This document shows positions 1-58,112 of a stretch of DNA of 64,000 nucleotides, in pieces. The translations under genes and the position numbers were made by a program. Each line of letters begins with the position of its first letter. Position 1 is the first letter of the stretch. The stretch comes from Chiloscyllium plagiosum. Lineage: Eukaryota. The notes beneath the pieces are model-generated. The model saw only the letters and a list, made by a program, of their open reading frames with translations, was not told the origin of the DNA and did no database searches. The stretch covers positions 54,584,448 to 54,648,447 of the forward strand of contig NC_057718.1 in NCBI RefSeq assembly GCF_004010195.1, written 5' to 3'.

Positions 1-300
1 TCAGCCCGCTCGGCACACCAGCCTCATTCCTGAAGAAGGGCTTATGCCCGAAACATCGATTCTCGTGCTCCTAGGATGCTGCCTGGCCTGCTGTGTTTTT
101 CTAGCACCACATTTTTCAAAGCAGGTTCAAACAGAGATTGAATGAATGTATCTCAGCCCGCTCGGCACACCAGCCTCATTCCTGAAGAAGGGCTTATGCC
201 CGAAACATCGATTCTCGTGCTCCTAGGATGCTGCCTGGCCTGCTGTGTTTTTCTAGCACCACATTTTTCAAAGCAGGTTCAAACAGAGATTGAATGAATG
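1..300 (+). repeat. Exact tandem duplication (1-148 = 153-300, period 152) spanning a PLE terminal repeat/Gypsy junction
   Basis: Direct comparison of the two copies; each contains a hammerhead-like motif and the start of the Gypsy RT sequence. Confidence 0.9.
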
Positions 301-2980
301 CTCAAAGGCAACATAATCAAAATGAGTTGCAGTGACTGGTGCCAAACCCAGGTGGTACCAAACGATTATGAATGGAGTATCACAAAGTCAATGCAGTTAC
401 AAAGTCTGATTCATATTCCATTCCACATTTGGCAGACAGTATTGAGAATGGGACAAGTAACCTATATTTCTAAGTTGGACTTACTCAGGGGATACTGGCT
501 GTGATTCCTTTATCTGAAACAGCAGTTTTGGCTTTTGTGACTCTAAATGGACTGTATCAGTTTAAAGTGATGCCATTTGGTATTGTTACAACACGGAGTA
601 AACCCTCCTGTTAAATTTAAACCAGCAACACAGAAAAGATTTATCTTATCCCATGCAGTAATCTGTGAAAATTCAAGAGGCCAAGAACTATTTAAAGTAA
701 AAATTAACAACTTTATTTCTTAAAGTATAACAGAGAATAATTAACTAACAACTATTTACAATTCCTTCCTCTAACTTATCTTTTACCTTCCCTTCTATAA
801 TACTAGTCCGATAACAATCCCAATTAAGATTTACAGTTAAAGTCAAAGTCTAAAACTAGCTAGCAGTCGAATCTTCTCTTTATCTTCGTCGGTAGATTTG
901 CTCCCCAGGTCAGTGTTGAGGCTTTTTTCTGTGCAATCTCCTCTTGACAGGTACCTCTCAGAGAGTTCTGACTAGCAATCTGCAGCTGTTGGTCTGCTGG
1001 CAGTTCTCCTCCCAACTGTTCAATTTTCCCCAGTCTTATAACCCAAAGTATCAGATTATATCATTGGCTTTTAAGATTGTCAATATAATCAATTCAAATT
1101 TGATTAGAATTTGGTATTTTTCATGGTATAATTTAAACTGATTGGCCAAATTCAAATCTGTTTTGTCGTGTTCAGGCAACTAGCCGCCCCATTAGCTGGA
1201 GCACATGTTACATTGCGTCTTATTGAGAACACTTGGTGCTGTCACTGCTAGCTTTCACTCTCTTGAAGGTATAGTACACCCACATTTTCATAACAGAATG
1301 AAAAATGCACCAGCCACATTTCAAATATTAACCAATAAAATCATTTCTGGATTGCCCAATTGTGTGGTGTTCATCAACCTCCTGGTGATTTTTAGTTACA
1401 CATGGAAGGAACATTTGCAGCATCTATCAGAATTATTTGATTGGTTTTGTGATGTGGACTGGGTGATAAACGCAGCTAAGAATGTGTTTGTAAAAGCCCA
1501 AGTCATATTCCTGGGCCACGTTTTTGGACATGGATGGATGATCCCTCAGGATGTGAAAACAAAGTTATTGGAATTTTCCATACCTTCGATGAAGACAGGA
1601 GTACTACAATTTCTTGAATTGAGTGCTTCTTATTGGATGTTTTCCCAAATTATTACTGTGTGGTTGCTCCACTGACTGTCATATTGCAGGATTACAGAAA
1701 TTTTCAGTGGAAGGAGGACAGTCAGAGGGCATTTGACAGCCTGAAAGCTGTGTTAATGACTGCCCCAGTGTTAGCCGCACCTAAATTACACAAAGCCATT
1801 CAAGGTGGCTTTCGATGCAAGTGATGTGTGTGTCAGTGCTGTAGTCTTACAAGAAGAAATTAAAAGATAGAAAGGGTATTTTTCCAGAAAATTGAATGAT
1901 CATCTGCAGAAATATTCCATAACTGAGAGGAAAACTTTGAGCTTGGTGTTGGCGGTACAATTTTTCAATGTTTATATTCCCAGTAATCTGTCTTAGACAA
2001 TTCTATATATTGATTCTAACACATTGAAGCTTTTGGAGAAATATGAAGACAAAAAATCCAAACTGTTTAGATGGACCTTATTATTGCAGCCATTCAATTT
2101 GAAAATTATACATGTGGCGGGATGAGAGAATGTAATTGCCAATCCATTGTAGCAACTTTGATGAAGAAAGATGGAGGTGTTGAGTGGTAGGAATAAGCGG
2201 ACTGAAATAGACTGCAGTAAGTGAATGCTTAGAGTCAATGTAATGTATAAGTATTGTAGTGTACTGATAGGGTAAGACTAGTGGTTTTTAAAAATGAAGC
2301 CATCTTTGTATGTTAATGGTTCATTTCTAAAATAAAGGAGGGGGTTGTATTGATACTGCAACTTTAAGAGGTATCTTTTGTCCTTTTATTTGTAAAGACG
2401 GGTTTTAAGACAGATGTCAACGTATCTACTTCGAAAGCCAGTAAACAGCCTGTGAGGCCTTGGGGATATTTTAAAGTTGGAACAATCACAGTAGATGGGT
2501 GTGGCCAGCTCTCACAGACCAGGATTTGTAGGTTTGTTTTAGTTTTTCGGTTTAGCTTTAAGCAGTTGCTCTTGGAATTTCAACAGGGCAGAACATGTTG
2601 GAGTTTTGAAGAAATAGAAGCTAACTTTTCTCTCTCTCAGTTACAGCTGGAATTTCTATCTCAGACAAATCTATTTTCTGAATTTGCCTTTCTGCCAAGG
2701 GCTGTTACTACATTGGAACAGTAAATTACTAATTGTTACTGTATCTATTATTCTGTTAAGATATCAAATAGAGTTAAGTTACTCTAAGTTCTTTTCTCTT
2801 TTATTGTATTTTAACTGTAGTGTTTAAAGAAATTGTGTTTTGTTTAACGTCGAGTAGTTTGACCATCAAACCGAATCTGGAACACTGCACGTTACATTTC
2901 CCTTTAAAATAAGAAAAAGTTAGAATCGAGGCTATCTTCTAAAAATATTTTTGAGGGGGTCTGGTCTGGTCTGTAATACA
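271..2980 (+). mobile_element. Decayed Gypsy LTR retrotransposon (Gmr1-like): RT-RNaseH, PPT, 3' LTR
   Basis: YISKLDLLRGYW, MPFG|MKNAPATFQ, FLGH, LMTAPVLAAP and an ENVIA-type RNaseH end near 2160. Polypurine tract ends at 2345; LTR 2346-2980 is bounded by TGTATT...AATACA. Confidence 0.8.
584..1295. mobile_element. Solo LTR (712 bp) inserted into the Gypsy RT
   Basis: TGTTA...TAACA termini; interrupts MPFG|MKNAP exactly; 4-bp TSD gtat/gaat (1 mismatch). Confidence 0.75.
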
Positions 2981-3629
2981 TCCAAACAACCAAATCGTCA
3001 ATCTTCCTTCAATAACACTTTCCAAACAAATACTTTCTACCTCCAGGATGAACAAGGACAGCAGATACAAAACACCACTCACCTTCAAGATCCCCTCCAA
3101 GTTGAACATCATTCTGACCTGAATGTACATGCAGTTCTTTCACTGTCACCAGGTCAAAACCCTGGCAATTGCTTCCTTACAGCTTTGCAGGTATATCTAC
3201 ATCACATGGGCAGCAGTGTTTCAAGAAAATGATTCACCATTTTCTCAAGAGCAGTTAGAAATGGACAACAAATGCTTGCAAATGATGCCCGCATCCCATG
3301 AAAAAATACGAGATGAAAGATAACAGTGAAATAAAGGAAATACTATATTAGTTCAAAGAATAATGTCGATCTAGGGGCATAGGGGTGATGTAACGAATAG
3401 CAAACCAAGACAAAAATAGACTTTCAGAAAGGCATACAAAAGAACGTGTGAGGTTTATCAAGGTTAACATGCAATTTTGCAACTAAAAACAATTTGCAAT
3501 CAATGTGAGCCCTAAAATTGGATGAGTATTATTACGACTATAAATAAGAAAATGGCAGATCTGTTAAAAATTAGATAATTTTTCTCAGTTTTGAAAACTC
3601 TGTTTATAGCATGTGAATAAGCCTTCGTC

Positions 3630-5042: not shown

Positions 5043-8000
5043 TAGAGTCATAGAGTCATAGAAATGTACAGCAGGGGAACAGACCCTACGGTCCAACCTA
5101 TTCACGCCAACCAGATATCCCAACCCAATCTGGTCCCACCTGCCAGCACACGGCCCATATCCCTCCAAACTCTTCCTTTTCATAAACACATCCAAATGCC
5201 TCTTCAATGTTGCAATTGTACCAGCCTTTACCACATCCTGTGGCAGCTCATTCCATACATGTATCACCCTCTGCATGAAAACGTTGCCCCTTAGGTCTCT
5301 TTTATATCTTTCCCCTCTCATCCTAAACCTAGGACCTCTAGTTCTGGACTCCCCGACTCCAGGGAAAAGACTTTGCCTATTTATCCAATCCATGCCCATC
5401 ATAACTTTTTAAACCTCTATAAGGTCACCCCCTCAGCCTCCGACGCTCCAGGAAAAACAGCTCCAGCCTGTTCAGCCTCTCCCTGTAGCTCATATCCTCC
5501 AACCCTGGCAACATCCTTGTAAATCTTTTCTGAACCCTTTCAAGTTTCACAACATCTTTCCAATAGGAAGGAGACCAGAATTGCACGCAATATTCCAACA
5601 GTGGCCTAACCAATGTCCTGTACAGCCACAACATGACGTCCCGACTCCTGTACTCAATACTCTAACAAATAAAGGAAAGCGTACCAAACACCTTCTTCAC
5701 TTTGCTATCTACCTGCGACTCCACTTGCAAGGAGCTATTAACCTGCACTCCAAGGTCTCTTTGTTCAACAACACTCCCTAGAACCTTACCATTAAGTGTA
5801 TAAATCCTGCTAAGATTTGCTTTCCCAAAATGCAGCACCTCACATTTATCTGAATTAAACTCCATCTGCCACTTCTCAGCCCACTGGCCCATCTGGTCCA
5901 GATCCTGTTGTAATCTGAGGTAACCCTCTTTGCTGTCCACTACACCTCCAATTTTGGTGTCATCTGCAAACTTACTAACTGTGCCTCTTATGCTCGCATC
6001 CGAATCATTTATGTAAATGATAAAAAGTAGAGGACCCAGCACCGATCCTTGTGGCAGTCCACTGGTCACAGGTCTCCAGTCTGAAAAACAACCCTCCATC
6101 ACGACCCTCTGTCTTCTACGTTTGAGCCAGTTCTGTATTCAAATGGCTAGTTCTCACTTTATTCCATGAGATCTAACCTTGCTAATCAATCTCCCATGGG
6201 GAACCTTGTCGAACGCCTTACTGAAGTCCATATAGATCACATCTACTGCTCTGCCCTCATCAATCTTCTTTGTTACTTCTTCAAAAAACTCAATCAAGTT
6301 TGTGAGACATGATTTCCCATGCACAAAGCCATGTTGACTATCCCGAATCAGTCCTTGCCTTTCCAAATACATGTACATCCTGTCCCTCAGGATTCTCTCC
6401 AACAACATGCCCACCACTGAGGGCAGGCTCACCGGTCTATAGTTCCCTGGCTTGTCTTTACCGCCCTTCTTAAACAGTGGAACCATGTTTGCCAACCTCC
6501 AGTCTTCCAGCACCTCACCTGTGACTATCGATGATACAAATATCTCAGCAAGAGGCCCAGCAATCAATTCTCTAGCTTCCCACAGAGTTCTCAGGTAAAC
6601 CTGATCAGGTCCTGGGGATTTATCCATCTTTAACCGTTTCAAGACATCCAGTACTTCCTCCTCTGTAATCTGAATATTTTGCAAGATGTCACCATCTATT
6701 TCCCTACAGTCTATATCTTCCATATCCTTTTCCACAGTAAATACTGATGCAAAATATTCATTTAGTATCTAACCCATTTTCTGTGGCTCCACACAAAGGC
6801 TGCCGTGCTGATCTTTGAGGGGCCCTGTTCTCTCCCTAGTTACCCTTTTGTCCTTAATATATTTATAACAACCCTTTGGATTCTCCTTAATTCTATTTGC
6901 CAAAGCTATCTCATGTCCCCTTTTTGCCCTCCTGATTTCCCTTTTTAGTATACTCCTACTTCCTTTATACTCTTCTAAGGATTCACTCGATCTATCCTGT
7001 CGATATCTTACATATGCTTCCTTCTTTTTCTTAACCAAACCCTCAATTTCTTTAGTCACCCAACATTCCCTATGCCTACCAGCCTTCCCTTTCACCCTGA
7101 CAGGAATATACTTTCTCTGGATTCTTGTTATCTCATTTCTGAAGGCTTCCCATTTTCCAGCCATCCCTTTACCTGCAAACACCTGCCTCCAATCAGCTTT
7201 TGAAAGTTCTTGCCTAATATCGTCAAAATTGGCCTTTCTCCAATTTAGAACTTCAACTTTTCGATCTGGTCTACCCTTTTCCATCAATATTTTAAATCTA
7301 ATAGAATTATGGTCGCTGGCCCCAAAGTGCTCCCCCACTGATACCTCAGTTACCTGCTCTGTCTTATTTCCCAAGAGTAGGTCAAGTTTTGCACCTTCTC
7401 TAGTAGGTACAATTGTCTTGTACACACATAAGAAACTCCTCTCCATCTAAACCTTTAACACTATGGCAGTCCCAGTCGATGCTTGGAAAGTTAAAATCCT
7501 CTACCATAACCACCCTATTCTTACAGATAGCTGAGATCTCCTTACAAGTTTGTTTCTCAATTTCCTTCTGACTATTAGGGGGTCTATAATACAATCCCAA
7601 TAAGGTGATCATCCCTTTCTTATTTCTCAGTTCCACCCAAATAACTTCCCTGGATGTATTTCTAGGAATATCCTCCCTCAGTACAGCTATAATGCTGCCC
7701 CTTATCAAAACTTCCACTCCCCTCCTCTCTTGCCTCCCTTTCTATCCTTCCTGTAGCATTTGTATCCTGGAATATTACGCTGTCAGTCCTGCCCATTGCT
7801 ATGTCATCCCAGTCCCATGTTCCTAACCATGCCCTGAGTTCATCTGCCTTCCCTGTTAGGCCCCTTGCATTGAAATAAATGCAGTTTAATTTATCAGTCC
7901 TACCTTGTCCCTGCCCTGACAGCTTGACTCATTTCTGTTCTCAACTGTACCAGTCTCAGATTGATCTCTTTCCTCACTATCTCCCTGGGTCCCAACCCCC

Positions 8001-8647
8001 CCACCGCCACCTCCCCCACCCCCATCACCATAGCAAATTGTAGCAAATTTCCCTGCCAGTATATTAGTCCCCTTCCAATTTAGGTGCAATCCGTCCTTCT
8101 TGTACAGGTCACTTCTACCCCAAAAGCGATTCCAATCATCCAAAAGTGTGAATCCTTCCCCCATACACCAGCTCCTCAGCCATGCATTCATCTGCTCTAT
8201 CCTCCTATTCCTGCCCTCACTAACCCGTAGCACTGGGAGCAATCCAGATATTACTACCCTTGAGGACCTCCTTTTTAAATTTCTGCCTAACTCTCGGTAA
8301 TCTCCCTTCGGAATCTCAACCTTTTCCCTTCCTATATCGTTGGTTCCAATGTGGACAATGATCTCTTGCTGGCCTCTCTCCCCCGGGAGAACATTCTGCA
8401 CCCTGCCTGAGACATCCTTGATCCTGGCACCAGGGAAACAACACACCATTCTGCTTTTTCTCTGCTGGCCACAGAAACGTCTGTCTGTACCTCTGACTAT
8501 AGAATCCCCTAACACAATTGATTTCTTGGAAGCCTACGTACTCCTCATTGCATTAGAGCCAATCTCTATACCAGAAACTTGGTTGTTCGTGCTACATTCC
8601 CCTGAGAATCCATCACCCCCTACATTTTCCAAAACAGCGTACCTGTT
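5043..8647 (-). mobile_element. Near full-length CR1 (HER1-like) LINE: ORF1 SGNH esterase, APE endonuclease, RT; frameshifted
   Basis: ORF1 LGDSIVRG...HIGTND...DGLH (7886-8515); endonuclease GLYYRPPN, DFNFPSIDW, SDHN; RT PGPD, QHGF, DFSKAFDKVPH, PQGSVLGP, FADDTK; short tandem 3' tail (CTATGACT) at ~5043. Confidence 0.93.
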
Positions 8648-9700
8648 ACCTCAGTTTCCTCATTTCCTCTATTTCTGGTCTACTACGAAGATGATCATAA
8701 ACTATTTGTTCAATATTGTGGACAGTTATTCATTCTCCATGACAATTTCTCCTGTCCATGCTTCTAAAGCAGCTGCTTTCTCTCTTTTTATATACTTATA
8801 AAAGCTTTTATAGCTATTCTTCTATATTCCTGGGTAATTTGCAATCATGCTTTTCTTCCCCTTACCAACCTTTTGCTGGTCATTATTTGCTTTCTAAAAC
8901 ATTCTCAATCCTCAGACTTGACATTATTCTTTTGCAACATTCCTCAGCCTCTTCTTTTAATTTAATGCTATCTTTAAATTTCTGAGTGAGAAATTAATGG
9001 GTTTTTTTTTGCTGACGTATTGTCTCTAAGAATTTATTTATGGTGACCATCTTGAATTGTTTCCCTCTGTTTATTTGCTGCCATACTTCTACCATTAGAA
9101 CTTATTCATGTTTGTGCTCCACATAGGCCCCTTCCACCAATGCACCCCTACTCCTTCATCCAAGCCCATCAACACATCCTATTCCATTCTCCCTATTGTA
9201 TTTATCCCAGCACGTAAGGACTCTCCTAATTACCTCCTTATAATAGTGAGTTCCATCCTTCCAATCACTCTTGCCAAAGAGATGTTTGCAGAATATCCTA
9301 TTTGATGTATTCAAAACAATTTTGTATATATGGTCCTGGGTTCTAGTCTCACCCTTATCCTACAAAATCAATTTATAAACTTCAAAAATTTATATCCAGT
9401 CTTTTTTCCAGAGAAGAAAACCCACTGTCCAATTTTGCCTGATGGGCCTGGTTCTCGTATCATTTTTGTAGAACGTTTTTGCATCTTTGAGCGTTTGTAT
9501 CATGTTTTTCATAATATGAAGACCAGAACTGTTCATAATACAGAAACTACTCTTAATATTAGAGCTGCATTCATGAAAAATGTATCATTTAAATTAATCA
9601 GAGTTTTCCATTACGAAGTAAATCTGCAGTTAGGATCAGTGGGATCTTTCACATAAAAAAGTAATTAGAAGATTGTGCCTGTAATTTGGAATACTTTACA

Positions 9701-12556: not shown

Positions 12557-14170
12557 CTAAATTGATGGGACTGGTATTTGCTTTTTGGAAGTATCATCCT
12601 CCTGCACAAAATCTGGTATTTTTGCCATATGGTGATGAATGGCAATGTGTGAATTTGCAAATTCACAGGTAGAGTTTACTGGCTGCAAACTGTTCGGGGT
12701 GCTCACTTCCTGGGAAGGACTGCTGTTATAAATGCTATAGTAAGGCTCAGTCCATGTGTTGATAGGCGTTGAGTTATTCCGTTCATAATGCTGCTGGCCA
12801 ATTGACAAATTGGGACTTAACACACTGTCTCTTGAGTGACTGGGGCCACAAGCCTGGTCCACCAACCTTCTCTGTGGCTTAGATGACAACATACAAGCTG
12901 AATTTGTTTCATGATGAGATGATTTGTTTCTGTTCATATCCAGGCTCCCTTTGCCCACTGCTTGTAACCGAGTCTTATGCTTGCAACGCATGCAGCCCAG
13001 GGTCACATGCTGTGTATACCAAAGAATTCTTTTCCTGAGTCCAGCACTGTTGCGTGAGTATATAAATGGATTTAGTCCCGATTTTAAAAATATTAATGTG
13101 AACCCACACAGTTTCAGCTGATTTAAAATAAAACTGCTCCCTGGTGTCAAAACATCTTGCATGAGGGAGATGCCCAAAGGTAGGCAGCAAACGAATACTG
13201 AGAGTACAATGACAACACATGTCACCACAGCCTTTGAATCTTTTGCCCCAGAAAGGTTCACTGAAGATACAAGTTGCAACCTCTTTGCAGCACTTTGGAC
13301 ATGGGTCAGAGTTTTGCCATAGGCATGCATTTGCACATGCTGGAGTTTGTTGTAATTCTGAATTCGGTAAAGGTGCTGCATACCAGGCTGTAGATCATCA
13401 ATCCCTGTGCTCATGAGAGCCTTAGGTCTTGATGTATCAACCTTAATGACAGCACATTTCCTCACTCGTGCATTCTTGTTCAGTGCATAGGCTATCATCA
13501 TATAGGAAACTGCCACAGTGCCTGCACAAAATGTAAAATCAATAACATATAGATATAATATGATTTTATCATCTTCCTTAATGCATCCAAAGAGGGGAAC
13601 ACATACTTTGGATTTCTCTGGATATGTCCTCATGGTAGCCAGGGTAGACAGAGTAAAACTTACTGTCCATAGACTGATGCTTAGAATAAGTGAACAGGGC
13701 AAATAAGCTGTTGTGTTGGGTTGATGGCCCAACACCATCCGCAGGCGATGGAGTGCTATTACTGCCACAGATTTGAGGGACATTATTACGAATCCAGCAC
13801 TAGTGAGGTGAAAAGTGAAGCAGAAAGCTTCAGAGACGCTGTTGTCTGAATCAAAAATTAAAATGAAAGCAAACATGGGTGTTGTAACACAACAGATGAA
13901 TAGGTCACAAAAGGAAAGGTTTAGGACCATAAAGTCAAAGTTAGTCCGGAATTTCCTAAATGCTGGATCAAAGAATGACAAGAAGACAATCAGGTTGCCG
14001 TACGTTCCCAAACAGAATACAAGTACCAACAGCAGTGTGCATGTGACAAGAGTAGTGGTGTGAATGAGCTCCTGGAGATGTGCCACTGTTGTGTTCACAG
14101 CAAACGACACAGATGAGGTGTTGATGGCATTTGGAAAATTCTGGTCTAATGAAGACAAGGTCAAATTCAT
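12557..14170 (-). CDS. GPR75: G protein-coupled receptor 75, intact 537 aa, single coding exon
   Basis: Long ORF with 7 hydrophobic segments and GPR75 signatures [34 protein letters not shown] (HRL at the DRY position), [53 protein letters not shown] and C-terminal KQIPVPSI. Lies immediately downstream of PSME4 on the same strand, as in mammals. Confidence 0.98.
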
Positions 14171-14695
14171 CTTTCAAAATGTATATTTGGAAAACCTGCT
14201 TGGAAAGTGTGAATAGGCAGGTGCCTGTTGAATATTGTTTGCCTTCCTTATGACACCTACATACAATCACAGGCTGTAGGCTAGAAGTAGAGAAGCCATG
14301 TACTGGAATGTGCAATTATTCTGGACATAACAGGAAGACCTGGTTCCCCGTTCCTTACCAAGGTTCCTTCCTGGGTTCCCATTCTGTGACCGCCTACAGC
14401 CCTCTGAACGGCTGTAGTGCCAATCAACGGAGTCAAATACAAGTGAGATACCAGGAGTTGAAAATGCTGCACAAAATGTGTATTTTATGGTGAAACACCC
14501 TCGGAATATTTGAGTCTCTCCGATAGAAACGTGTGGCCGGTTGAAGGGCAGGTTTTTGTACAGTAGGATCCCACAGTGAGAGCCGGCTTCCGTCAGGAAG
14601 AGGTTTTTCTAGGACCACCTTCTCCACTCTGATCTCCAGCATCTGCAATCCTCACTTCCCTCCCATCAGGAAGAGCCCAGTCACGGCGTCCTTAC

Positions 14696-15210
14696 CTTGC
14701 GGCAAACGTCTGGGCGGGATGCTCGGCCTCAGTCTCCGGGAATGAAAACAGATCAAAGAGGGCCGACTGTAAACAGCTGGGCGAATCCCGACATCCCCCT
14801 TTATCAAAGTGTAACTCCCCAAAGCTCGTCCTGGGGCCGCGGTAATTCCTGCTCCATCTGCCCAGCCTGGTCCCAGCGCAGAGACACCGGGAGGGCGGAC
14901 CCCCACCCCACCCCCCCTGGCCTGCCTGCCTGCCGCTGGGGTGGGGATGATCAGCCTGGTCTGAGACGGAGGGATGGGGGGGTACCGCTCTGTCCCTGCT
15001 CCGCACTGCAGCAAGCTCCAGCCCCTGCTCCTGCTGCAGTCCGCAGTCACTGCACAGCAAAGCGGCCTTGACCCTGCTCCCTCCCGCGTTAATATTCACA
15101 TCGCCTGCAGCAGTAAGTGCACCGACCGAGGCACCAGTTCGGAGCCGGAGGCAAGGGTTAATCCTTGATATCCCAAACTGCATTAAACCGGCTGGCCAAA
15201 AGTACATCCA
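14696..15210 (-). promoter_or_regulatory. GPR75: GC/CpG-rich promoter and predicted non-coding exon 1 of GPR75
   Basis: The only CpG-rich unique segment in the window. Strong donor GCAAG|gtaagg at 14696/14695 and acceptor ttctctacttctag|C at 14281/14280 give a 415-nt intron and 110 nt of 5'UTR in exon 2. Mammalian GPR75 also has a non-coding first exon. TSS not determinable. Confidence 0.7.
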
Positions 15211-15974
15211 GCAGAAGGGTCCAGGGGACCGGAAGCGTTAACTCTGATATCTCTACACAGATGCTGCCAGACCGGCTGAGTGATTTTTTTTCAGCAAGTT
15301 GTGTTTTTTTTGTCTTTATTTGTGACACAACACTTGGGCATTAGGCGTTAAGAACAGGGCTTGTAAGTGTACTAAAAAATGAAGCAAGAGTTAAATAAGT
15401 CCAATTTAATTAAATTAAGTCACACCTCAAATTATAAATTCTGAATGATTCATTTCAGCAATGTTATTTCTACTGACATTAAACCTAATGTTTCTAAACT
15501 ATAAAAATGGAAAGTCTTATGCTCAGAGCAAGTATTTGATAATAAATCCAGAGACCACAGTAAATGCTTATTCTCCCAATTACATTAGGAATCAATATCC
15601 AGTACTTTGTTGGAATAAGAGAATAAAAAAGTCTATATAACTGATGTGGACTAGAGGTAAATCATCCAGGAGAAAAGCTGCTCATGAGACACAAAACTGG
15701 TGGTGGTTTAACCGGAGGGTCACCACATCTCAGGCAAGGGGAGAGTTCAACGAGGAGAATCCTTCATGGTAACCTCAGCCGGTGCAGGAACTGAACCTAT
15801 GCTGTTGGAATCATTCTGCATCACCAACCAGCCATTCAGACAACTTAGCAATTTCTATGACACACATTTTCTGTTTCCTGATAGCAACTGAAATTTTATG
15901 ACAAGTCAAGGGATCAAGATGACAAGAAGGGCATGTAGCAATAATGATGCCAGTAGTAAGCAGGGTAACTAGTC

Positions 15975-17380
15975 AGAGAAACGTAAATTACGGAAACTGA
16001 CTCTTCAGTCCAACTTATCCATGCTGACTGATATAGAGTTAAGACCGGCATGTAGTAATAATGATGCCGGTAAGCAGGGTAACTAGTCCATGCTGACCAC
16101 ATACCCCAACCCAATCTAGTTCCCACCTGCCAGCACTCGGCCCATATCCCTCCAAACCCTTCCCATTCATAAACCCATCTGGACGCCTTTTAAAAGTTGC
16201 AATTGTACTAGCCTCCACCATTTCCTCTGGCAGCTCATTCCATACACATACCATCCTTCGCATGAAAACGTTGCCCCTTAGGTCTCTTTTATATCTTTCC
16301 CCTCTCACCTTAAATTATGATCTCTAGTTCTGGACTCCCTGACCCCAGTGAAAAGACTTTGCCAATTTACCCTATCCATGTCCCTCATAATTTTGTAAAC
16401 CTCTAGAAGGTCACCGCTCAGCCTCCGACACTCCAGGGAAAACAGTCCCAAGCCTGTTCAGCCTCTCCCTATAGCTCGTATCCTCCAACCCTGGCAACAT
16501 CCTTGTAAATCTTTTCTGAACCCATTCAAGTTTCACAACATTGTTCCGATAGGAAGACCAGAATTGCATGCAATATTCCAACAGTGGCCTAACCAATGTC
16601 CTGTACAGCTGCACCATGACCTCCCAACTCCTGTACTCAATACTCTGACCAATAAAGGAAAGCATACCAAATGCCTTCTTCACTATCCTATCTACCACTT
16701 TCAAGGAGCTATGAACCTGCACTCCAAGGTCTCTTTGTTCAGCAACACTCCCTACGACCTTACCATTAAGTGTATAAGTCCTGCTAAGATTTGCTTTCCC
16801 AAAATGCAGCACCTTGCATTTATCTGAATTTAACTCCATCTGCCACTTCTCAACCCATTGGCCCATCTGGTCAAGATCCTGTTGTAATCTGAGGTAACCC
16901 TCTTCGCTATCCACTACACCTCCAATTTTGGTGTCATCTGCAAACTTACTAACTGTACCTCCTATGCTCGCATCCAAATCATTTATATAAGTGATGAAAA
17001 GTAGTGGACCCATCTAAATAAATCTAGTCCCATTTGCCAGTACTTTACCCATATATCTTTAAACCCTTCCAACTCATACACCCATCCTGATGCCTTTTAA
17101 ATGTTGTAATTGTACCTGCCTCCACCACTTCCTCTGGCAGCTCATTCCATACACGCACCACCTTCTGCATGGAAAAGTTGCCCCGTCGGTCCCTTTAAAT
17201 CTTTTCCCCCCTCACCCTAAACTCTTTAGTTTTGGATTCCCCCCCTCCCCCCGTCACAGGGAAAAGACCTTGTCTATTTACCCTATCCATGCCCCTCATG
17301 ATTTTATAAATCTCCATAAGGTCACCCCTCAGACTCTGACACTCCAGGGAATTAGCCCCAGCCTATTCAGCCTCTCCTCA
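15975..17380 (-). mobile_element. Two adjacent 5'-truncated CR1 fragments (15975-17013; 17015-17380)
   Basis: ORF 16411-17013 (FADDTKIGG...LEYC.QFWS) is nearly identical to the 5043-8647 family. Confidence 0.9.
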
Positions 17381-22171: not shown

Positions 22172-22685
22172 CATAGAACATAGAACACTACAGCACAGTA
22201 CAGGCCCTTCGGTTCTTGATGTTGCGCCGACCTGTCATACCTAACCTATGCTAACCATCTAACCTACACTATTCCATGTACATCCATATGCTTGTCCATG
22301 ACGATTTAAATGTACTTAAAGTTGGCAAATCGTTGCAGACAAAGCATTCCATACCCTTACTACTCTCTGAGTAAAGAAACTACCGCTGACATCTGTCCTA
22401 TATCTATCACCCCTCAATTTAAAGCTATACCCTCTCGTGCTCGCTGTTACCATACTTGGAAAAAGGCTCTGCCTGTCCACCCTATCTAACCCTCTGATTA
22501 TCTTATATATCTCTAATAAGTCACATCTCAACCTTCTTCTCTCTAACAAAAACAGCCTCAAGTTCCTCAGCCTTTCCTCGTAAGACCTTCCCTCCATACC
22601 AGGCAACATCCTAGTAAATCTCCTCTGCACCCTTTCCAAAGCTTCCACATCTTTCTTATAATGCAGTGACCAGAACTGTACACAT
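22172..22685 (-). mobile_element. CR1 3' fragment
   Basis: ORF 22316-22648 ALERVQRRFTRMLPG; ttctatg-repeat tail. Confidence 0.9.
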
Positions 22686-29191: not shown

Positions 29192-29266
29192 AAGAAGGGC
29201 TTATGCCCGAAACGTTCCCTGGATGCTGCCTGACCTGCTGCGCTTTTCCAGCAACACATTTTCAGC
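29192..29266 (+). mobile_element. 75-bp 5'-truncated PLE terminal-repeat insertion with 12-bp TSD
   Basis: cctgtttctatg at 29180-29191 and 29267-29278; the insert matches the repeat at 30-120 and 45144-45220. Confidence 0.75.
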
Positions 29267-34129: not shown

Positions 34130-34438
34130 TTTTTTACATTACATTACAGTGTGGAAACAGGCCCTTCGGCCCAACAAGTCCACACCGACCCACCGAAGCG
34201 TAATCCACCCATACCCTTACATTTACCCCTTACCTAACACTATGGGCAATTTAGCATGGCCAATTCACCTGACCTGTACATCTTTGGACTGTGGGAGGAA
34301 ACCAGAGCACCCAGAGGAAACCCACACAGACACGGGGAGAACGTGCAAACTCCACACAGTCAGTCGCCTGAGGCGGGAAATGAACTCGGGTCTCTGGCGC
34401 TGTGAGGCAGCAGTGCTAACCACTGTGCCACCGTGCCC
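34130..34438 (-). mobile_element. HE1-type SINE nested in CR1
   Basis: GGGCACGGTGGCACAGTGG head, V-domain, tail; short tgccct flanking duplication. Confidence 0.9.
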
Positions 34439-37063: not shown

Positions 37064-37372
37064 GGGTGGCACGGTGGCTCAATGGTTAGCACTGCTGCCT
37101 CAGAGCACCAGGGACCCAGATTGGATTCCAGCTTCGGGCAACTGTCTATATGGAGTTTGCACATTCTCCCAGTGTCTGCGTGGGTTTCCTCTGGGTGTTC
37201 CAGTTTGCTGTGCAGTTCAGGCAGACTGGCCATACTAAATTGTCCATAGTGTTCAGGGTTAAGTGCATTAGGGGTAAATAAAGGATAGGGGGAATGAGTC
37301 TGGGTGGGTTACTCTTGGGTTGGTGTGGACTTGTTGGTCTGAAGGGCCTGTTTCCACACTGTCAGGATTCTA
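37064..37372 (+). mobile_element. HE1-type SINE (older, internally deleted)
   Basis: GGGTGGCACGGTGGCTCAATGG head; gaagggcctgtttccacactgt tail. Confidence 0.85.
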
Positions 37373-37790: not shown

Positions 37791-37794
37791 CTTC

Positions 37795-38460
37795 AAATCT
37801 CGTCCCACTTGCCAGCATTTGGCCCTCTAAACCCTTCCTGTTCATATACCCAATCAGATGCATTTTAAATGTTGCAATTGTACCAGCCTCCACCACTTCC
37901 TCTGGCAGCTCATTCCATACATGCACCACCCTCTGCATGAAAAGGTCGTCCATTGGGTCTCTTTCATATCTTTTCCCTCTTACCCTAAACCTATGCCCTC
38001 CAGTTCAGGGCTCCCCACCCCAGGGAAGAGACTTTGTCTATTTCTCCAATCCATGTCCCTCATGATTTTATAAACCGATATAAAGGTCACGCCTCAGCCT
38101 CCGACACTCCAGGGAAAACAGCCCCAACCTATTCAACCTCTTGTTATAGCTCAAGCCCTCCAAGCCTGGCAATATCCTTGTAAACCCTTTCAAGTTTCAC
38201 AACATCCTTCCAATAGGAAGACCAGAATGCATGCTATTTTCCAAGTGGCCTAACTAACGTCCTGTACAACCACAACATAACCTCTCACCTTCTAAACACA
38301 ATACTCTGACCAATAAAGGAAAGCATACCAAACGCTTTCTTCACTACCCTGCACTCTGAGGTCTCTTTGTTCAGCAACATTCCCTATGACCTTACCATTA
38401 AGTGTATAAGTCCTGCTAAGATTTGCTTTCCCAAAATGCAGCACCTTGCATTTATCTAAA
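37795..38460 (-). mobile_element. CR1 3' fragment
   Basis: WNELPEEVVEAGTIATFK, KCKVLHFGKANLSRTY. Confidence 0.85.
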
Positions 38461-41400: not shown

Positions 41401-43997
41401 ACTTGCACTAATACTTACAATTTAATATGAATGGTGCACAGTGCTAAAAAGTAGTCATCAATAACTCTTGCTATTTTTCATACTTTATGTGTGTTAGTTA
41501 GTGTTAATTAAAAACTTTGTTGGTATCTGTGGGAATTGCATCTATTACAGAAACTAACTGCAGAACACAAAGTACTTGAGATCATATTAAAGGCTCATTT
41601 GATAAACTGGAGATATACTGTGCTGCCTAATTGGTATTTCAACAAGAATTATCAGGGTAACAAACTGACCTGTATTTGAAATGGAACTCCCACATCCTGG
41701 CTCCTTTGCTGCTGCAAAAGTCTTTGTACAATATTTTGAGATTTACTCTTTGCACTTGGGGAGGATGCACCTTCATATGTGAATAGCAGCTTTCTCCCAA
41801 AAGCCTGGGTCACAGGATCAGCAGCTTCCACAGGCTTGGCAGCAAATCTTCCCACCTAACCAGCTGAATCCATACTCAAATTAACAGCCACTACCACCCA
41901 ACACTGACCCCTATGACAAAGCAGCCCTTACCTTTCACCTTTCCCACCCACCCTCAAAAGTTAATCACCATGGGAATGATTGTGATACGAACATGCCTTT
42001 TACTTCTCATTAATTATATGTTAATAATATGCCCAATTTTTTATATATTTATATATAGCTGATTTGCACAAATATTGGAAGGATTTCAAAGTGATGATAT
42101 AGAAAACAGTTTAAAAGTGAACATATGAGCACAATTACCACTGATGGAATGTTCAGTATAATTAGGAGGCAAAAATAGAAGTTGTAGTTAAAGATATAGA
42201 GCATTTGATGAAAAGATTAGTTCACCATGAATGCTAATGCATCAACTGAAATTTCTGGCCTTAACTGGGTCTCAATTTGTATATTCTACTTTTAATTAAT
42301 CAAAATACACAATATACTTGTAGTTTCAAAATAATTTGAAATTATAAACAATCCAGAAAATCCAGTGTAATGAAACCAATTCTTTGTTCACAGTTATAGA
42401 TGTGACCTTGCTGACAAGTTCAATACCCATTACAGGTATCCACAAGTCTTCTAGACAAAACCAGACAAACCACATTTGTTTGTCATTCCATTTACACTTT
42501 TAAAAAAATCATTTTCCTATTTGTCAGACTGTGCTTTAAATCCTTGATCAATACGTCATATTAAATGTGCCTAGTAGCTTTAGTAGGTAGATTACGACTG
42601 AACCTTACACACACACATCACCGTTTATGAGCAAGAGTCACTTTAACACAAATAACAGGAGCCTTAACATTACCACCAGGAGTCAGGTGTTGATCTATGC
42701 TTTGTAGACATAAATACATCACTTGCCCAGATAAAGGTCTGTATCATTGCAGCAACAAACACCCTCTGTTACTGCGTTTTGAGAAGATTCATAGCGAAGG
42801 TGGGGATTCTGGACGTAGGTTTGCTCGCTGAGCTGGAAAGTTTGTTTTTAGATGTTTCGTCACCATACGAGGTAACATCATCAGTGAGCCTCCAGTGAAG
42901 CACCGGTGGTATAGCCCACTTTTTTGTGTTTAGGTTTCCATGGGCTGGTGACGCCATTTCCAGTGATGTTACTTCCTGTGGTGGTGTCATTTTCTGTTCT
43001 TTGTCTCAGATGGTGGTAAATGGGATCCAGGTCAATGGGTTTGTTGACAGAGTTCCGGTTGGAATGCCATGCATCTAGGAATTCTCGTGCGTGTCTCGAG
43101 GATGGATGTGTTGCCCCAGGCGAAGTGGTGTCCTTCGTCATCTGTATGTCAAGGTATTAATGAGTGTGGGTCATGTCTTTTGTGGACAGTTGATGTTTGT
43201 TTATCCTGGTAGCTAGTTTCCTACCTGTTTGTCCAATGTAGTGTTTGTTACAGTTCTTGCAAGGTATTTTGTAAATGACATTAGTTTTGCTTGTAGTCTG
43301 TATAGGGTCTTTCAAGTTCATTAGCTGCTGTTTTAGTGTGTTGGTAATTTTGTGGGCTACCATAATGCCAAGAGGTCTGAGTAGTCTGGCTGTCATTTCA
43401 GAGATGTCTTTGACATAGGGGAGCGTGGCTAGGGTTTCTGGACATGTTTTGTCTGCTTGTTGGGGTTTGTTGCTCAGAAATTGGTGGATTATTTTCATCG
43501 GGTACATGTTCTTTTTGAATACACTATGTCGGTGATTTTCCTCTGCTCTTCATAGTTCCTCTGTGCTGCAGTGTGTGGTGGCTCATTGAAATAATGTTCT
43601 AATGCAGCTTCATTTGTGAATGTTGGGAAGATTGCTTCTTTCTGTATGTGTTCCATATGTGTTGGTTTCCTGTCGACACTGGTTTGAAGTTTGCCATTGG
43701 CTGTTCGCTCTACTGCGATATTTAGGAATGGCAGTTTGTTGTTGTTTTCCTCCTCTTTAGTGAATTTTATGCCAGTAAGGATATAATTGATGGTCTTGAA
43801 GGTTTCCTCTAATTTGTTTTGCTTAGTGATGACAAAGGTGTCATCCACGTATCGGACCCAAAGTTTGGGTTGGATGGTTGGCAGAGCTAATTGTTAGAGT
43901 CTCTGTTAAGAACTCTGATATCAGAGATCCCATGGGTATTCCGTTGGCTTGTCTGTAGATTTTGTTGTTGAAGGTGAAGAGAGTGGTAAGATAGGTC

Positions 43998-45268
43998 ATC
44001 ATAGTTCCTCTTCGTAGGGTATGTGGAACAATCCATCTTCCGCAACTACACTGGCCCCACCCCCCATCTTTTCTTTCGCTACATAGATGACATGAACCAT
44101 GGGGTTATGTTGCAGCTGTAGGAAACTATGGTGTGGCCGCACTTGGAGTATTGCGTACAGTTCTGGTTACCACATTATAGGAAGGATGTGTAAGTTTTGG
44201 AAAAGATGCAGAGGAGATTTATGAGGATATTGTCTGGTATGGAAGGAAGGTCTTCTGAGGAAAGACTGAGTGACCTGAGGCTGTTTTCGTTAGAAGGAAG
44301 AGGTTGAGAGGTGACTTAATAGAGATGTGAAAGATGATCAGAGGATTAGATAGTGTTAGCAGAGAGAGACGTTTTCCTCGGATAGTGATGGCTAGCATGA
44401 GAGGACATAGCTTTAAATTGAGCGGTGATAGATATAGGACAGATGTCAGAGGGGTAGTTTCTTTACTCAGAGAGTAGTAATGGCGTGAAACTCCCTGCCT
44501 GCAACTGTAGTAGACTCACCGACTTTAATGTCTTTTTAAATGGCCATTGGATAAACATATGGATGATAATGCAACAATGCAGGTTAGTTCAGCTTCAGGC
44601 TGGTTTCACAGGTCAGCACAACATTGAGGGTCAGAGAGCCTGGACTGTGCTGTAATGTTCTGTGTTCTTTGAAAGCAAGATAATATTTCGAGTCTGGCGA
44701 TTCTTCATCAGAACTGTTAACAGCTCAGGAAAGGTGGTAATATATTGAAGTGACGTTTGTGGGAAGGGGTTGGTCTTGCACAAGGTGACTTACTTGCCGA
44801 TTTACTTCCTCCAACCTCAGTATCCAAGGCCTCAGGCACACCTTCCAGGTGAAGCAGCAGCTTACCTGCACTTCTCTCAACTCATTTATTTCATTCACTG
44901 CTCAGAATGTGGTCTCCTGTATATCGGGGGAGATGAAACACAGATTTGATGACCGCTTTGCTGAACACCTACACTCTGTCTGTAAAACATGACCCAGAGT
45001 TTCCCACTGCCTCCACTTCAACACACCACTGTGTTCCTACACCAACATTTCTGTCCCAGATCTGTTGCAGTGTTCCTTAACGCAAGTTCAAAGAACAACA
45101 CTTCATTTTCCACTTTCTCCTGCTGAACACTCTCTGCTCATTCCTGAAGAAGGGCCTGTGCCCGAAACGTCGAATCTCCTGTTCCCTGGATGCTGCCTGA
45201 CCTGCTGTGCTGTTCCAGCAATAAAGTTTCAACTTTGATCTCCAGCATCTGCAGACCTCACTTTCTCC
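43998..45268 (+). mobile_element. Second, composite PLE insertion nested in the first, 14-bp TSD
   Basis: TSD tggtaagataggtc at 43984-43997 and 45269-45282. Contents: RT piece FVGYVEQSIF...FFRYIDD, CR1 3' end (~44094-44670), GIY-YIG piece IHCSECGLLYIG...RFAEHL, terminal repeat 45120-45268. Confidence 0.8.
45140..45175 (+). ncRNA. Minimal type I hammerhead ribozyme motif, best preserved copy
   Basis: Stem I ATTC/GAAT, core CTGAAGA (45144-50), stem II GGGC/GCCC, GAAA (45164-67), ACGT palindrome, GTC cleavage triplet ending at 45171. Confidence 0.75.
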
Positions 45269-48200
45269 TGGTAAGATAGGTCCACTAGCTTGACGATACT
45301 GTCTTTGTTGAAGAAGTTGGTGGTGTTTGGTGTATGTGCCTTTGGTTCTTCTAATAGTGTAGCCAGTGTTTCCTTGGCCAGGTTGATATTGATAGATGTA
45401 AACAGGGCTGTTACATCAAAGGAAACCATTATTTCATCCTCTTCTATCTTGGTGTCTTTGATGATCTTGAGGAATTCTTGGGTGGAGTGGATAGAATGGC
45501 ATGAGTCTTCTACTAAGTGTTTTAGTCATTGTTGTAGCTTCTTGGCTCATCTGTAAGTTGGTGTTCCGGGTAGCAACACTGAGGGGTGCTCCTGGTTTGT
45601 GAATTTTGAGTAATCTGTAGAAACGTGGTGTGTTGGATCCGTCTGGTTTCATTTTTTGGAAATTGAACTTATTTATTTCTCCAGATTTCTGAAGTTTTTT
45701 GAGTAGGGCTATAATTCAGTTCTCTAGTTGTGGGGTTAGGTTTGTTGCCACTTGTTGATAAGTGTTGCTATCTGCAAGCAGTGCATTCTCTTTCTCAATG
45801 TAGACTCTGATTTAAAATGACTGTCAAGTGTCCTTTGTCTGCAGGTAGGATAATGTTTTTTATCATTTTTTCGTCCTTCTCGTGCTTTCCTTGCTTGCGT
45901 ATTGAGTGTGTTTCTTCCTTTTCCTGTTTAGTGTTGGTGCGACTGTCTGTCTGGTGGTATGCTGAGGTTCTTCTGTGAATTCATTGTCTTTCGTGTTGTT
46001 TCTAATGCTGCTAAGAAATCTTTATTCACATCCTCAAGGTTGTAATTTAATATTCATACTAAGATGGCTTTTTCAGTGTCTGTTAAGGGCCAGTCAGGTA
46101 AGATTTTTATCCATGCTTCTGTGTTGTTATTTTGTCTAAGTTTGTCTAGTTTTTTCTGCAGGTCTAGTTTTCTCATTTTCTGTGTTTGTTGCTGTCTAAT
46201 GTTTATGCCTTGTTGTATTGTGTCTATCCATTCATGGTCTGTTACATTAGTGAGTAAAGCTTGGTTGTATTTATGGAGTCTGTTGTGGGCATCATTAATA
46301 ATTTCTCTAAGCATTCTGTGGCCATTTTGCTCTGCTATTCTTTTGGCTAGTGGGGTGTTAAGGGGAGGTTTGTATTTAAGACATTTTAGGTGGTATTTGT
46401 TTCCTTAGACATTTGTGCAGGAAATACAGCTGTTCGTGGGTGGCGCTCTGTCGGATGGCGTTGGTTTCCCATTTTCGGGCCAGTTTTAGCATACTGCGCC
46501 CATAGATGTTAGCAAGTTTTGAGAAGGTTCGTAACTCAGGTTGAGGTTCTGTCACCACAGGAAATGACATCACCAACTTAAGGAAACCTAAACACATAAA
46601 TAAAACAGCAGGCCGTATCACCAGTGGCTCACTGATGTTACCTAGTATGGTGACGAAACGTCCAAAAACTACCCTTCCAGCTCAGTGAGCAAACTTACAT
46701 CCAAAACACCCTCAATATTTAGGAGGGCAAAGTATGCTCTCTGGTTTCAAAGCCTCAATCATAATCTGTAAACACAGCTTTTACCACAATCTTCCACACA
46801 TTGCAAGAGCACTCGGGCAGTGGATCGCCTGTCCCGATACCAAGATGGAGGAAGAGGCTATACTTGTTCATAGGATATGGGTGTTATTGGCTACATCAGC
46901 CCTTACTGCCAATCCTTAACTGTAGTGGAGAGGCACTATTATTGACAGTAATATATTAGCAGACATGAGAGTTTATTAATCACAATACTTATATATCATC
47001 TGCAATCATTCGCTAACGAGTATGACTTTTTAGCTAAGAAATTCCATGTCAATAGTTAACCTGTACATAATTCTTGTTTGATTGCGTGTATGTATGCAAT
47101 TACTTCAAGTGCATGATTATTTGACTTCACAAAATGGGCACAACAATTAATTCTGAATAAAAGGTATAATTTGTTTGTCAAGAAATTACTTCCTCACCTG
47201 TGCATTTTAAGCCTTTGATGGTATTTGTTCCAGATAAAACAATTTTTTCATATGGTAGCAACAAGTTAAATAAATCAAATATCAAAATCTAAGTCAGATA
47301 TGCAGGTCAAAACTGCTGGTGTATACCATGTGTCCTGTAGGCTACAAATTTTCTCTGAAGGCTATGCGGAAATAAGTGCTCCAGAACATCATGAGGAATT
47401 CATTATGCATTAAGAATTGTGCATGCTGTCATTTACAGAGAAGATGGCATCATTTACTGAAGTTGTTGTTGAAGAAAGTTTGATCTTTCAGACTATACGT
47501 AGGGGCTAGATAAAGGAACATAATTGGCACCTGTAGGTCTTCTAAACATTGAGCCATCAGTCATCGGGGTTTTGAAAGACAGTCAAGGGGTTTCAGCAAT
47601 GATTCAAAATAGCCTTCTGAACAGGAGCTGGGTTGGTGCTAGCTTGGTCAATACAGCCTGGACCAGCAAGTCTTGGTTGATGCAGTGAATAAATTCTCCT
47701 AATGCTACATACCCATGTGGTGTAATGGTGCAACATTTGCAAACTCAGGTAGCAGAGGTGCCAGTATCAGTAAAAGTGTACTGGTAATAATTATCATATT
47801 CACCTCTATGTCAACAGATTTGTAACTCTGATATGACAGCCATGTAGCAGAACAATATTTCACTGTACAGCATCACAAAGTTGAGTGCGGTCTAATAGAA
47901 GATTCAATTATCTGCTTTTTATGATATATGTAAGATGACCTGGATTTGATATAGGACTTTGGCAGATGACACAAAACTTGTGCATAATTTGAACTGTGAA
48001 GATAAGTTACAAAAGGACACAAACAGACTGATAGAATGGACAAAATGAGTTGAAATTTAAAGCAGAGAAGTGTGGTGACACTTTATATTGCTGTAATTCC
48101 CACTAAAATGTAAGTGATTTCATTATTAAAGGAAAGAAGGGAGAGCTACCTTGGGATATAGACATATCAATGAAGATGGTAGGGAAGGTAGACAAAATGT

Positions 48201-48521
48201 TGAAATAGACATTGCCTCTTTTATCAAATCCAAGATTCTTAGTTTACAATGGAAAGAAAGCTAAAATGAAGCTTTCTAAATCATAAATCCATCCTTAACT
48301 GGAGTATTAAGTCCAATATTGGGCATCACAATTTAGAAAGGATGTGAAGGTTTTAAAGAAAATAATCAGGAGACTGGTATCAGGGATGAGGAATTTCAGT
48401 TTTGTCAATAAATTGGTTGAAGCTGGGTTGTTCTCTTTAGAGAAAGTTGTCAGGACATTTGATAGTAGTGTTCAAAATCATGAAGCGTAAATAAGACAAA
48501 AATATTCCATGACAGGAGATA

Positions 48522-48812
48522 GCGAGTTTTGAGAAGATTTGAGGTTCAGGTTGAGGTTCTGTATGTAGGTTTGCTCGCTGAGCTGGAAGTTTTGTTTTCA
48601 GATGTTTCATCAACATACTAAGTGACATCAATGGGCCTCCGGATGAGGCACTGGTGGTATGGCCCACATTTTATTTGTGGGGAAACAGAAGAGGAAATGA
48701 CAAAACCACATGAAATTATGTCACCACAGGAAATGACATCACCAACCCAAGGAAACCTAAACACAAAAAAAAGCAGGCCATACCAGCTTCCAGCTCAGCG
48801 AGCAAATCTACA
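48522..48812. mobile_element. PLE terminal-repeat-only inverted insertion within an old CR1 (~47900-49080)
   Basis: Same family as the termini of 42767-46703; flanked by tccatgacaggagata / tccataacaggaaata (TSD-like, 2 mismatches). Confidence 0.7.
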
Positions 48813-53227: not shown

Positions 53228-53555
53228 ATAGGAACCTACAGTGCAGATAGAGACTATTCAGCCCATCAAGTCTGTACTGAGCCTCCAAATAGCATTCCAC
53301 TCGGATTCACATCCCCACCCTAAAATTCCACATTTACAATAATCCACTTAGCTGCACACTATGGGCCAATTTAGAATGGCTAATACACATAACCTGCACA
53401 TCTTTGGACTGTGGGAGAAAATTGAAGCACCCAGAGGAAACTCACACAGACAAGGAAAGAACATGTAAACACCGCACAGACAGTCACCCAAGGCTGGGAC
53501 TGAATCCACATCCCTGGCATTGAGGGGCTAACCACTGTGCCACAATGCCACCCTA
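53228..53555 (-). mobile_element. HE1-type SINE (diverged)
   Basis: GGGTGGCATTGTGGCACAGTGG head, V-domain, CR1-like tail. Confidence 0.8.
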
Positions 53556-57069: not shown

Positions 57070-57201
57070 CTTCCGATCCTTTCTCGCACGTTTTTATAAA
57101 CTTGCGTGAGTTTCGGCTCAAGATATTGAAGGAGCCTATGCATTAGTTCAGGCACTCTCCATTCTTGCTGCGCCAAACCACCCTGCAAAACGTACAGTCG
57201 G
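57070..57201 (-). CDS. PSME4: PSME4 internal exon (C)[43 protein letters not shown](S)
   Basis: 132 nt, ctag|...|gtgaga, phase 2/2; matches PA200 sequence. Upstream exons were not found in the window. Confidence 0.95.
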
Positions 57202-57558
57202 CTAGCAATAGAACACAAAGAATGGGATTTTGTAAATTAAGGTTTTCATTCCTTACAGATATAGATCATTACATTCACAATTTTCTTTTTAATGGTCACA
57301 TATTACAGCCATTAAGTTTGTTATTCCTTTATTGGCGTTAATTTTTCACATTGTGATAGTATCAATATTGAAGGAAGCTAACTGGCCTACTGCATGCGCA
57401 CATATATTTTGAATGAGTACCATTACCTTGCTTATTCCCCATAAAAATGTAAATGTCTCCTTTTCCAAGTATATATCCAATTTTCTTTCGTAAAGTCACT
57501 TGAATCTGCTTCCAACACGTTTTCAGGCAATGAATTGCACATGATGGAAAATATTAAT

Positions 57559-58112
57559 CTGGATGCAGGTTTGCTCACTAAGCGGGTAGGTTCATTTTCA
57601 GACGTTTCATCACCATACTAGGTGACATCTTCAGTAAGCCTCCAAATGAAGCACCAGTAGTGTAGCCCGTTTTCTATGTTTGAGTTTCCTAAGGTTAGTG
57701 GTGTCATTGCTTGTGGTGACACCATTTTCCTATGGCGATATCATTTCCTGGGGGGGGGGGGGGGTGCAAATGGGATCCAAGTCAATGTGTTTGTTTACAG
57801 TAGCATGGCATTCCCACCGGAACTCTATCAACACATTAACTTGGATTCTATTTACCATCCCCCTACCCCCTGGAGATAAAGAGGAAATGACATCACCATT
57901 GGAAATGGTGTCACCACAGGAAATGACATCACCAACTCTAGGAAACTCAAACGTAGAAATAGAAAGCGGACTGCACCACTGGTGCTTCATTTGGAGGCTC
58001 ACTGAAGAGGTCACCTATTATAGTGACAAAATGTCTGAAAACAAACCTTCCAGCTTAGCGAGCAAACCTACATCCAGAACCTCAACCTGAGCTGCAAATC
58101 TTCTCAAAATTA
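57559..58112. mobile_element. PLE 3'-end inverted duplication (~250-bp arms) with hammerhead motifs
   Basis: Arms are homologous to 42770-43070. The minus-strand motif CTGAAGA-gtcacc/ggtgat-GAAACGTC at 57601-57634 has an intact core; the plus copy at 58002 has a mutated GAAA. Confidence 0.8.

Follow-up and report, generated by a model that had tools for sequence, protein, structure and literature searches.

Hammerhead motifs and insertions at the locus

The window analysed here is a stretch of 64,000 nucleotides of Chiloscyllium plagiosum (contig NC_057718.1, positions 54,584,448 to 54,648,447) and contains 15 sites that we read as minimal hammerhead ribozymes left behind by Penelope-like elements (PLEs), grouped in four families (A to D). 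About a dozen such motifs had been claimed in a preliminary description, and all 15 sites listed there are present, at the exact position or a few bases away. The descriptor used was formed by CUGANGA, stem II, GAAA, two bases, U and H, and it matched nine sites in the 64 kb: 30, 182, 31452, 35571 and 45144 on the plus strand and 34920, 42884, 44711 and 57634 on the minus strand. Its chance level, taken from 200 dinucleotide shuffles, was 0.105 matches on average with a maximum of 2. An extra base between A9 and G10.1 is present in all nine matches, and because of it a strict scan overlooked most sites; the motif pattern proposed earlier omitted this base.

CUGANGA, GAAA and U16.1-H17 are kept together at 9 of the 15 sites. 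The cores, previously described as constant, are intact at 10 sites but broken at 29189, 31437, 46632, ~48630 and ~15212, and GAAA is gone at 58002. The AGCT of family C, taken at first for the loop of stem II, is actually the palindromic helix III. The putative cut of the 45144 hammerhead, expected after C45171, falls at the correct position 17. The insertions and the motifs within them are listed in Table 1.

Table 1. Features related to PLEs and hammerheads in the window (LINE, long interspersed nuclear element; ORF, open reading frame; RT, reverse transcriptase).
Feature	Position	Strand	Remarks
Two identical 152-bp tandem units, family A end-modules	1-300	+	Cores 30 and 182; ACAU in both
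Decayed family D-like relic, core and GAAA lost	15205-15300	+	About 1 kb upstream of the GPR75 ORF
Family A micro-insertion, cut off inside core, 3' strand of stem I deleted	29192-29266	+	12-bp target duplication at 29180 and 29267
Family C fold-back	31318-31529	.	Hammerheads 31437 (-), core broken, and 31452 (+), stem I lost and stem II mismatched; about 37 extra tail bases on left arm; 9-bp near-duplication at 31309 and 31530
Family A fold-back within LINE RT remnant	34797-35660	.	Hammerheads 34920 (-) and 35571 (+); 12 differences between arms in 370 aligned columns; 14-bp target duplication at 34783 and 35661
First 49 codons of PLE-type ORF, then internal deletion; one stop codon	35250-35396	+	92% to P0015 (Chiloscyllium)
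Near-canonical family A hammerhead	35563-35606	+	Core, stem II and ACGU intact; stem I 2 bp, then U-U; putative cut after C35598
Near-full-length decayed Poseidon-type PLE, family B	42767-46703	-	10-bp target duplication at 42757 and 46704
Family B hammerhead of the preceding element	42845-42890	-	Core 42884; ACAU; stem I 1 bp; AUG 42878-42876
GIY-YIG endonuclease remnant, family B	43160-43549	-	Pfam PF01541, E 1.5e-4; 22.4 bits, just below the 22.6 cut-off
Nested Neptune-type (likely) PLE remnant, family A	43998-45268	+	14-bp target duplication at 43984 and 45269
Family D hammerhead	44676-44717	-	Core 44711; A-C mismatch in stem II; AUAU; stem I 1 bp
Canonical minimal hammerhead, family A	45140-45175	+	4-bp stem I, CUGAAGA-A, 4-bp stem II, GAAA-CG-UC
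Family B hammerhead of inverted terminal copy	46626-46668	+	3-base core deletion
Family B fold-back	48518-48812	.	Hammerhead ~48630 (-) without core; motif deleted from right arm; 12-bp near-duplication at 48506 and 48813
Family B fold-back	57557-58105	.	Hammerheads 57634 (-), near-canonical, G-U at 10.1-11.1, and 58002 (+), GAAA lost; clear target duplication not found
Candidate start codon (57628-57626) and stop codon (57620-57618), family B ORF	57618-57628	-	

Target duplications were looked for at nine boundaries and identified as exact repeats of 10-14 bp at four insertions and with one mismatch at two more. All five fold-backs present a longer tail of 35-40 bases on one arm only. By the boundaries adopted here, the PLE insertions with their nested pieces comprise about 5.7 kb, or 9% of the window. 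In the tandem at 1-300 each unit includes about 35 bp resembling flanking DNA, and the array may continue to the left of the window. The 100% identity of its units, at the very edge of the window, could come from a recent duplication or from an assembly artefact.

The rest of the window contains an intact single-exon ORF for a seven-transmembrane receptor (12557-14173, minus strand, 538 amino acids from stop to stop, best match GPR75 with E 1e-149), with a GC-rich region upstream of it at about 14700-15200. A decayed LINE, which we take to be of CR1/L2 type, occupies 5100-8550 on the minus strand and has GDSL-esterase, AP-endonuclease and RT matches. Other LINE-related pieces were identified at 16100-17350, 22300-22700, 25700-26450, 37800-38460 and 44090-44670. 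A dispersed repeat family of about 300 bp (31639-31929, 34144-34437, 37064-37209, 53236-53550 and 60807-61047) resembles a tRNA-derived shark short interspersed element and may be HE1.

Carrier elements of the four families

The nearest annotated proteins come from Stegostoma, Chiloscyllium and Hemiscyllium and support a shark-like host. Family B has the most complete carrier, the element at 42767-46703, whose order on the minus strand is N-terminus (from about 46552), RT, GIY-YIG and a 3' terminal repeat with the hammerhead; at its 5' end lies an inverted, 5'-truncated terminal copy (about 46550-46703, plus strand). The RT and GIY-YIG remnants follow each other in order within 46552-42930 and match P0001 and P0002 (E down to 1e-94), relatives that present RVT_1 and GIY-YIG matches themselves. 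The copy is interrupted by stops, frameshifts and the nested insertion. A homologue search with the endonuclease region gave 14 matches among 83 candidates: 82% to P0001 (Stegostoma), 57-69% to three uncharacterised Chiloscyllium proteins, 59% to a Hemiscyllium protein and 48% to P0010 (Opisthorchis). The CX2-5CXXC linker, which separates Neptune from the Penelope/Poseidon clade (PMC8557442), was identified in none of the six family B relatives checked nor in the translation of the window, and its absence points to the Penelope/Poseidon clade for this family. The same endonuclease sequence stands at the end of P0008, an isoform prediction of Chiloscyllium MAP3K7 (67% identity over 68% of the query), and represents either an exon capture or a gene-model artefact.

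Family A is nested inside this element, and family B copies without it were found by their joint 43990-45276 in six contigs of X3, one contig of X15 and one read of the RNA run X21. The nesting has three levels, the Poseidon-type element containing the Neptune-type remnant and this in turn a LINE piece with a family D relic. The order within 43998-45268 is an RT piece with YIDD (44008-44094), the LINE piece and family D relic, an endonuclease piece (44789-45064), the hammerhead and the tail. The YIDD and endonuclease pieces align weakly (E 0.005 and 0.002 within the window) with P0039, a protein of 882 amino acids with a GIY-YIG domain and a CX4CXXC linker. The endonuclease remnant keeps two of the three linker cysteines, the first and the last, with a stop codon between them, and these features make a Neptune-type origin of family A likely, although not firm. 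A CX2-5CXXC linker is characteristic of Neptune-clade PLEs (PMC8557442); here there are only fragments, and the alignments are weak. In the fold-back at 34797-35660 the PLE-type N-terminus (92% to P0015) runs straight into the 3' non-coding part on both arms. As an observation apart, the segment 35201-35660 is an internally deleted PLE unit of about 0.5 kb with an identical join in both arms, possibly a non-autonomous family. Family C is known from its fold-back with a one-sided tail and a near-duplication, and a PLE origin is suggested for families C and D.

Candidate start and stop signals overlap the family B hammerhead. A9, the extra U and G10.1 form an AUG in four of the five copies; in the 48630 copy the frame of this AUG is the only stop-free one of the three, and it overlaps in frame with the N-terminus at 46552. 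Loop II holds a TAG, in the frame of the endonuclease C-terminus, in three of the five copies. Among gene predictions, P0004 and P0006, from different shark genera, terminate exactly at the loop II codon, and P0002 reads through. Judged from these reading frames, the hammerhead likely contains the start codon of the element ORF, and it appears to hold the stop codon as well, so that the end of the ORF would overlap its start. The anole Poseidon element also has an ORF that starts at stem II (PMC11167929); in family B the candidate stop codon lies inside the hammerhead too, a feature for which no statement was found in the accessible parts of that paper. Among the paper titles listed in the literature searches, with subscription papers outside their reach, none pointed to a stop codon in loop II. 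The stem II and loop of family B (42851-42884 and 57601-57634, minus strand) closely resemble, by eye, two Clonorchis sinensis entries in Fig. S3 of PMC4209133, and the overlap of start and stop may explain both the conserved loop and this resemblance. Horizontal transfer with liver flukes is not claimed, as a shared clade and coding constraint explain the likeness equally well.

Covariation and decay of the copies

The covariation alignment comprises 10 sites, 182 being excluded as identical to 30 and 29189, 46632, ~48630 and ~15212 as too broken. In it 88.8% of the cells pair and six of the eight pairs are changed on both sides; the covariation score is 0.764, against 0.253 in shuffles and at most 0.248 with slid partners, for a structure derived from the same sequences and for ten rows equivalent to about four independent lineages. 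G10.1 is present in all ten sites and position 11.1 is C in seven and U in three, whereas the next two pairs of helix II are changed on both sides in four and five of the ten. The palindrome at 15.2-16.2 is CG, GC or UA in six sites, and the remaining four show CpG-type changes (TG in two, CA in two). The stem covariation described earlier therefore stands between families but not within them, where the changes are uncompensated. It shows a design common to the families and no evidence of selection on single copies.

The covariance model derived from these 10 sites finds all of them and 182, and weakly 29190, 46626 and 48595; the relic at ~15212 was missed. It gave seven further matches (E 0.7-4.6); six of them were inspected, all but 9595-9635, and none is a hammerhead. 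An Rfam scan of the window gave 11 matches with E up to 10, with no hammerhead family among them. Folding of the monomers against shuffles gave z from 0.9 to -2.0, scores that are uninformative.

Copy 45144 is the sole fully canonical one among the 15: its boxes are intact, stem II closes with G-C, ACGU is kept as the palindrome and stem I has 4 bp. Three are near-canonical: 35571 (short stem I with a U-U mismatch), 34920 (AUGU) and 57634 (G-U closure). In the remaining 11 the core is broken, GAAA or stem I is lost, or helix III is no longer palindromic. The CG of helix III has become CA or TG, without compensation, in 6 of the 11 copies of families A and B, and the CG at 11.1-12 is altered in three of five family B and both family C copies. 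Such changes are the pattern of methyl-CpG decay, and the damage within families is mostly uncompensated decay of this kind.

No intact same-strand pair near enough for dimerisation was identified in the window. The five fold-back pairs have their hammerheads on opposite strands, and therefore no dimer is possible within one transcript. The hammerheads at 30 and 182, the only tandem on one strand, both carry ACAU.

Origin and possible role of the motifs

The reading we hold with high confidence is that the motifs are minimal type I hammerheads of PLE terminal repeats, left as truncated and fold-back insertions; the copies in the window are likely inert and likely decaying neutrally. The PLE link, already proposed in the preliminary description, is shown for families A and B. 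In an active parent, two or more hammerheads of a tandem transcript would form helix III between their palindromes, ACGU or AGCU, and would cut after position 17, probably slowly and aided by the protein of the element (PMC4209133, PMC11167929). Both cleavage and protein assistance are suggested here by analogy. The PLE protein would use its GIY-YIG domain to nick DNA and would begin reverse transcription at either of two sites immediately downstream of the hammerhead; early termination with strand inversion would produce end-pieces and fold-backs of 75-900 bp with a tail of 35-40 bases on one arm. Because copying would start next to the hammerhead and usually stop early, nearly every insertion would carry a hammerhead, and the density of motifs would be high. 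A one-sided tail or adjacent inverted copy is known for PLEs (PMC8557442), and in the anole Poseidon element two internal start sites of reverse transcription define the tail (PMC11167929). Cleavage was absent in single minimal motifs and poor in dimers (PMC4209133), dimer cleavage being also found by Lünse et al. according to a review (PMC6765202). The anole motif cleaves only with its protein, is dispensable for insertion in vitro, and RNA-seq ends at its cut site were not found (PMC11167929).

The three best copies were drawn as dimers, with nearest-neighbour energies of -14.3, -13.3 and -12.7 kcal/mol against cofold minima of -19.5, -24.7 and -26.1 kcal/mol. The drawn dimers thus lie 5-13 kcal/mol above the best competing two-molecule fold, in energy models that leave out core tertiary contacts and magnesium, and this omission is the first of several points that weigh against the reading. 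The protein links of family A appear weak and indirect, and a homologue search with its endonuclease piece found none. Families C and D show neither an RT nor an endonuclease remnant in the window. The clade names given to A and B derive from one linker motif. Neutral decay was judged from 15 copies in one window. Finally, family A is very abundant on both strands in one poly(A) RNA run, so that pairing between separate RNA molecules is conceivable.

A complement to the PLE origin, possible although not the more probable course, is that some of family A propagates non-autonomously with a borrowed PLE protein, either as a retrozyme-like mini-element of about 0.5 kb or as a module of some 130 bases. 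The same codon 49-to-3' join in both arms of 34797-35660 implies a template that was likely already deleted, but it is a single deleted copy, and the first arm may have served as the template of the second. The summed depth in DNA contigs, which is not a copy number, reaches 3.2 million at the hammerhead-plus-tail bin of family A against 0.6-4.3 thousand at the neighbouring endonuclease remnant, a difference of about a thousandfold, and loose contig ends occur near 45140-45159 and 45220-45269; heavy 5' truncation alone yields the same depth profile. Animal non-LTR retrozymes are short non-coding hammerhead units related to, and derived from, PLE terminal repeats (PMC7229834; bioRxiv 10.64898/2026.07.22.740005). 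They form tandem arrays, however, whereas the copies of the window are dispersed or fold-back. Two or more tandem units with complete hammerheads, by which retrozymes are recognised, were not found within the window, the sole tandem (1-300) having apparent flanking DNA and a broken palindrome in both units.

Less probable, and in our judgement unlikely, is that parent elements retain the motif chiefly as a signal for protein binding, initiation or coding, with cleavage incidental. The overlap of the family B motif with start and stop codons would fit such a role, as would the anole hammerhead mutants without effect on insertion in vitro and the lack of RNA-seq ends at the anole cut site (PMC11167929). 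The run X21 also shows no pile-up of read ends at cut sites, a weak test given its fragmented single-cell poly(A) libraries. Four families whose stems are unrelated nevertheless share the same catalytic core bases; family A is one of them, although its extra base, an A, gives no AUG. The anole motif, too, does cleave once its protein is added (PMC11167929).

That the dispersed copies form a working ribozyme reservoir, cutting host transcripts, is very improbable, even with one canonical and three near-canonical copies in 64 kb. The RNA evidence comes from about 2% of X21, in which 4555 reads were aligned at 80% likeness; from a further run, X22, no reads aligned. Family A reads are abundant, the mean depth in the bin 45113-45239 being 495 on one strand and 748 on the other, but only 195 of the 4555 are at least 99% alike and 95% continue into unrelated sequence; the reads therefore stem from other copies located within host transcripts. 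The family B body shows a strand bias of about 4:1, which fits sense transcription or internal oligo-dT priming on the A-rich strand and from which nothing is inferred. The functional reservoir suggested in the preliminary description is not supported: 11 copies are clearly damaged, the close pairs are on opposite strands or both damaged, the published activity of such motifs is low even in dimers (PMC4209133), with eight of nine Xenopus dimers uncleaved (bioRxiv 10.64898/2026.07.22.740005), or depends on the protein of the element (PMC11167929), and, as a weak test, no RNA ends were seen at the cut sites. Chance matches, finally, are ruled out by the excess of descriptor matches over shuffles, the covariation and the fixed position of the motifs at the ends of PLE remnants, even though single copies fold no better than shuffles and Rfam finds none.

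The motif, its variants, the scattered and opposite-strand copies and the link to PLEs are already in Cervera and De la Peña 2014 (PMC4209133). The minimal hammerheads that they describe in the pseudo-long terminal repeats of metazoan PLEs present the same CUGANGAH core with an extra base, G10.1-C11.1 and GAAA-palindrome-UH without helix III, a short helix I and several families per genome, mostly as single or close opposite-strand copies. That paper reports 4,000 minimal hammerheads in the coelacanth genome and 9,000 in that of Xenopus; nine in 64 kb is far above this density, in a window chosen for the motif and with different descriptors. The earlier suggestion that such motifs are under-annotated in sharks holds in that no cartilaginous fish appears in Table S1 or Fig. 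S3 of PMC4209133, but not with respect to a 2026 preprint, where hammerhead retrozymes were found in the one chondrichthyan genome sampled (bioRxiv 10.64898/2026.07.22.740005). Penelope elements are recorded for the whale shark (PMC8455134). None of the paper titles listed in the literature searches, with subscription papers, Repbase and Dfam outside their reach, concerned shark PLE hammerheads. Lünse et al. may list shark examples.

A joint reading, offered tentatively, is that family B has no untranslated end: its ORF would stop in loop II eight bases after the start codon of the next unit begins, and the hammerhead would be ribozyme, start and stop at once. Protein-assisted cleavage would then sever the start codon and switch the RNA from message to template or circle. 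On the same tentative footing, sharks would have at least 10^5 minimal hammerheads, far above the published vertebrate counts, some of them spreading as deleted mini-elements.

If the overlap of start and stop is functional, the finding would matter more, since the literature leaves the function of PLE hammerheads unsettled (PMC8557442, PMC11167929). If the genome-wide count proves very high, sharks would be well suited to supply natural variants for analyses of covariation. As they stand, these observations extend the class known since 2014 by PLE families from carpet sharks, whose motifs are missed by standard Rfam scans.

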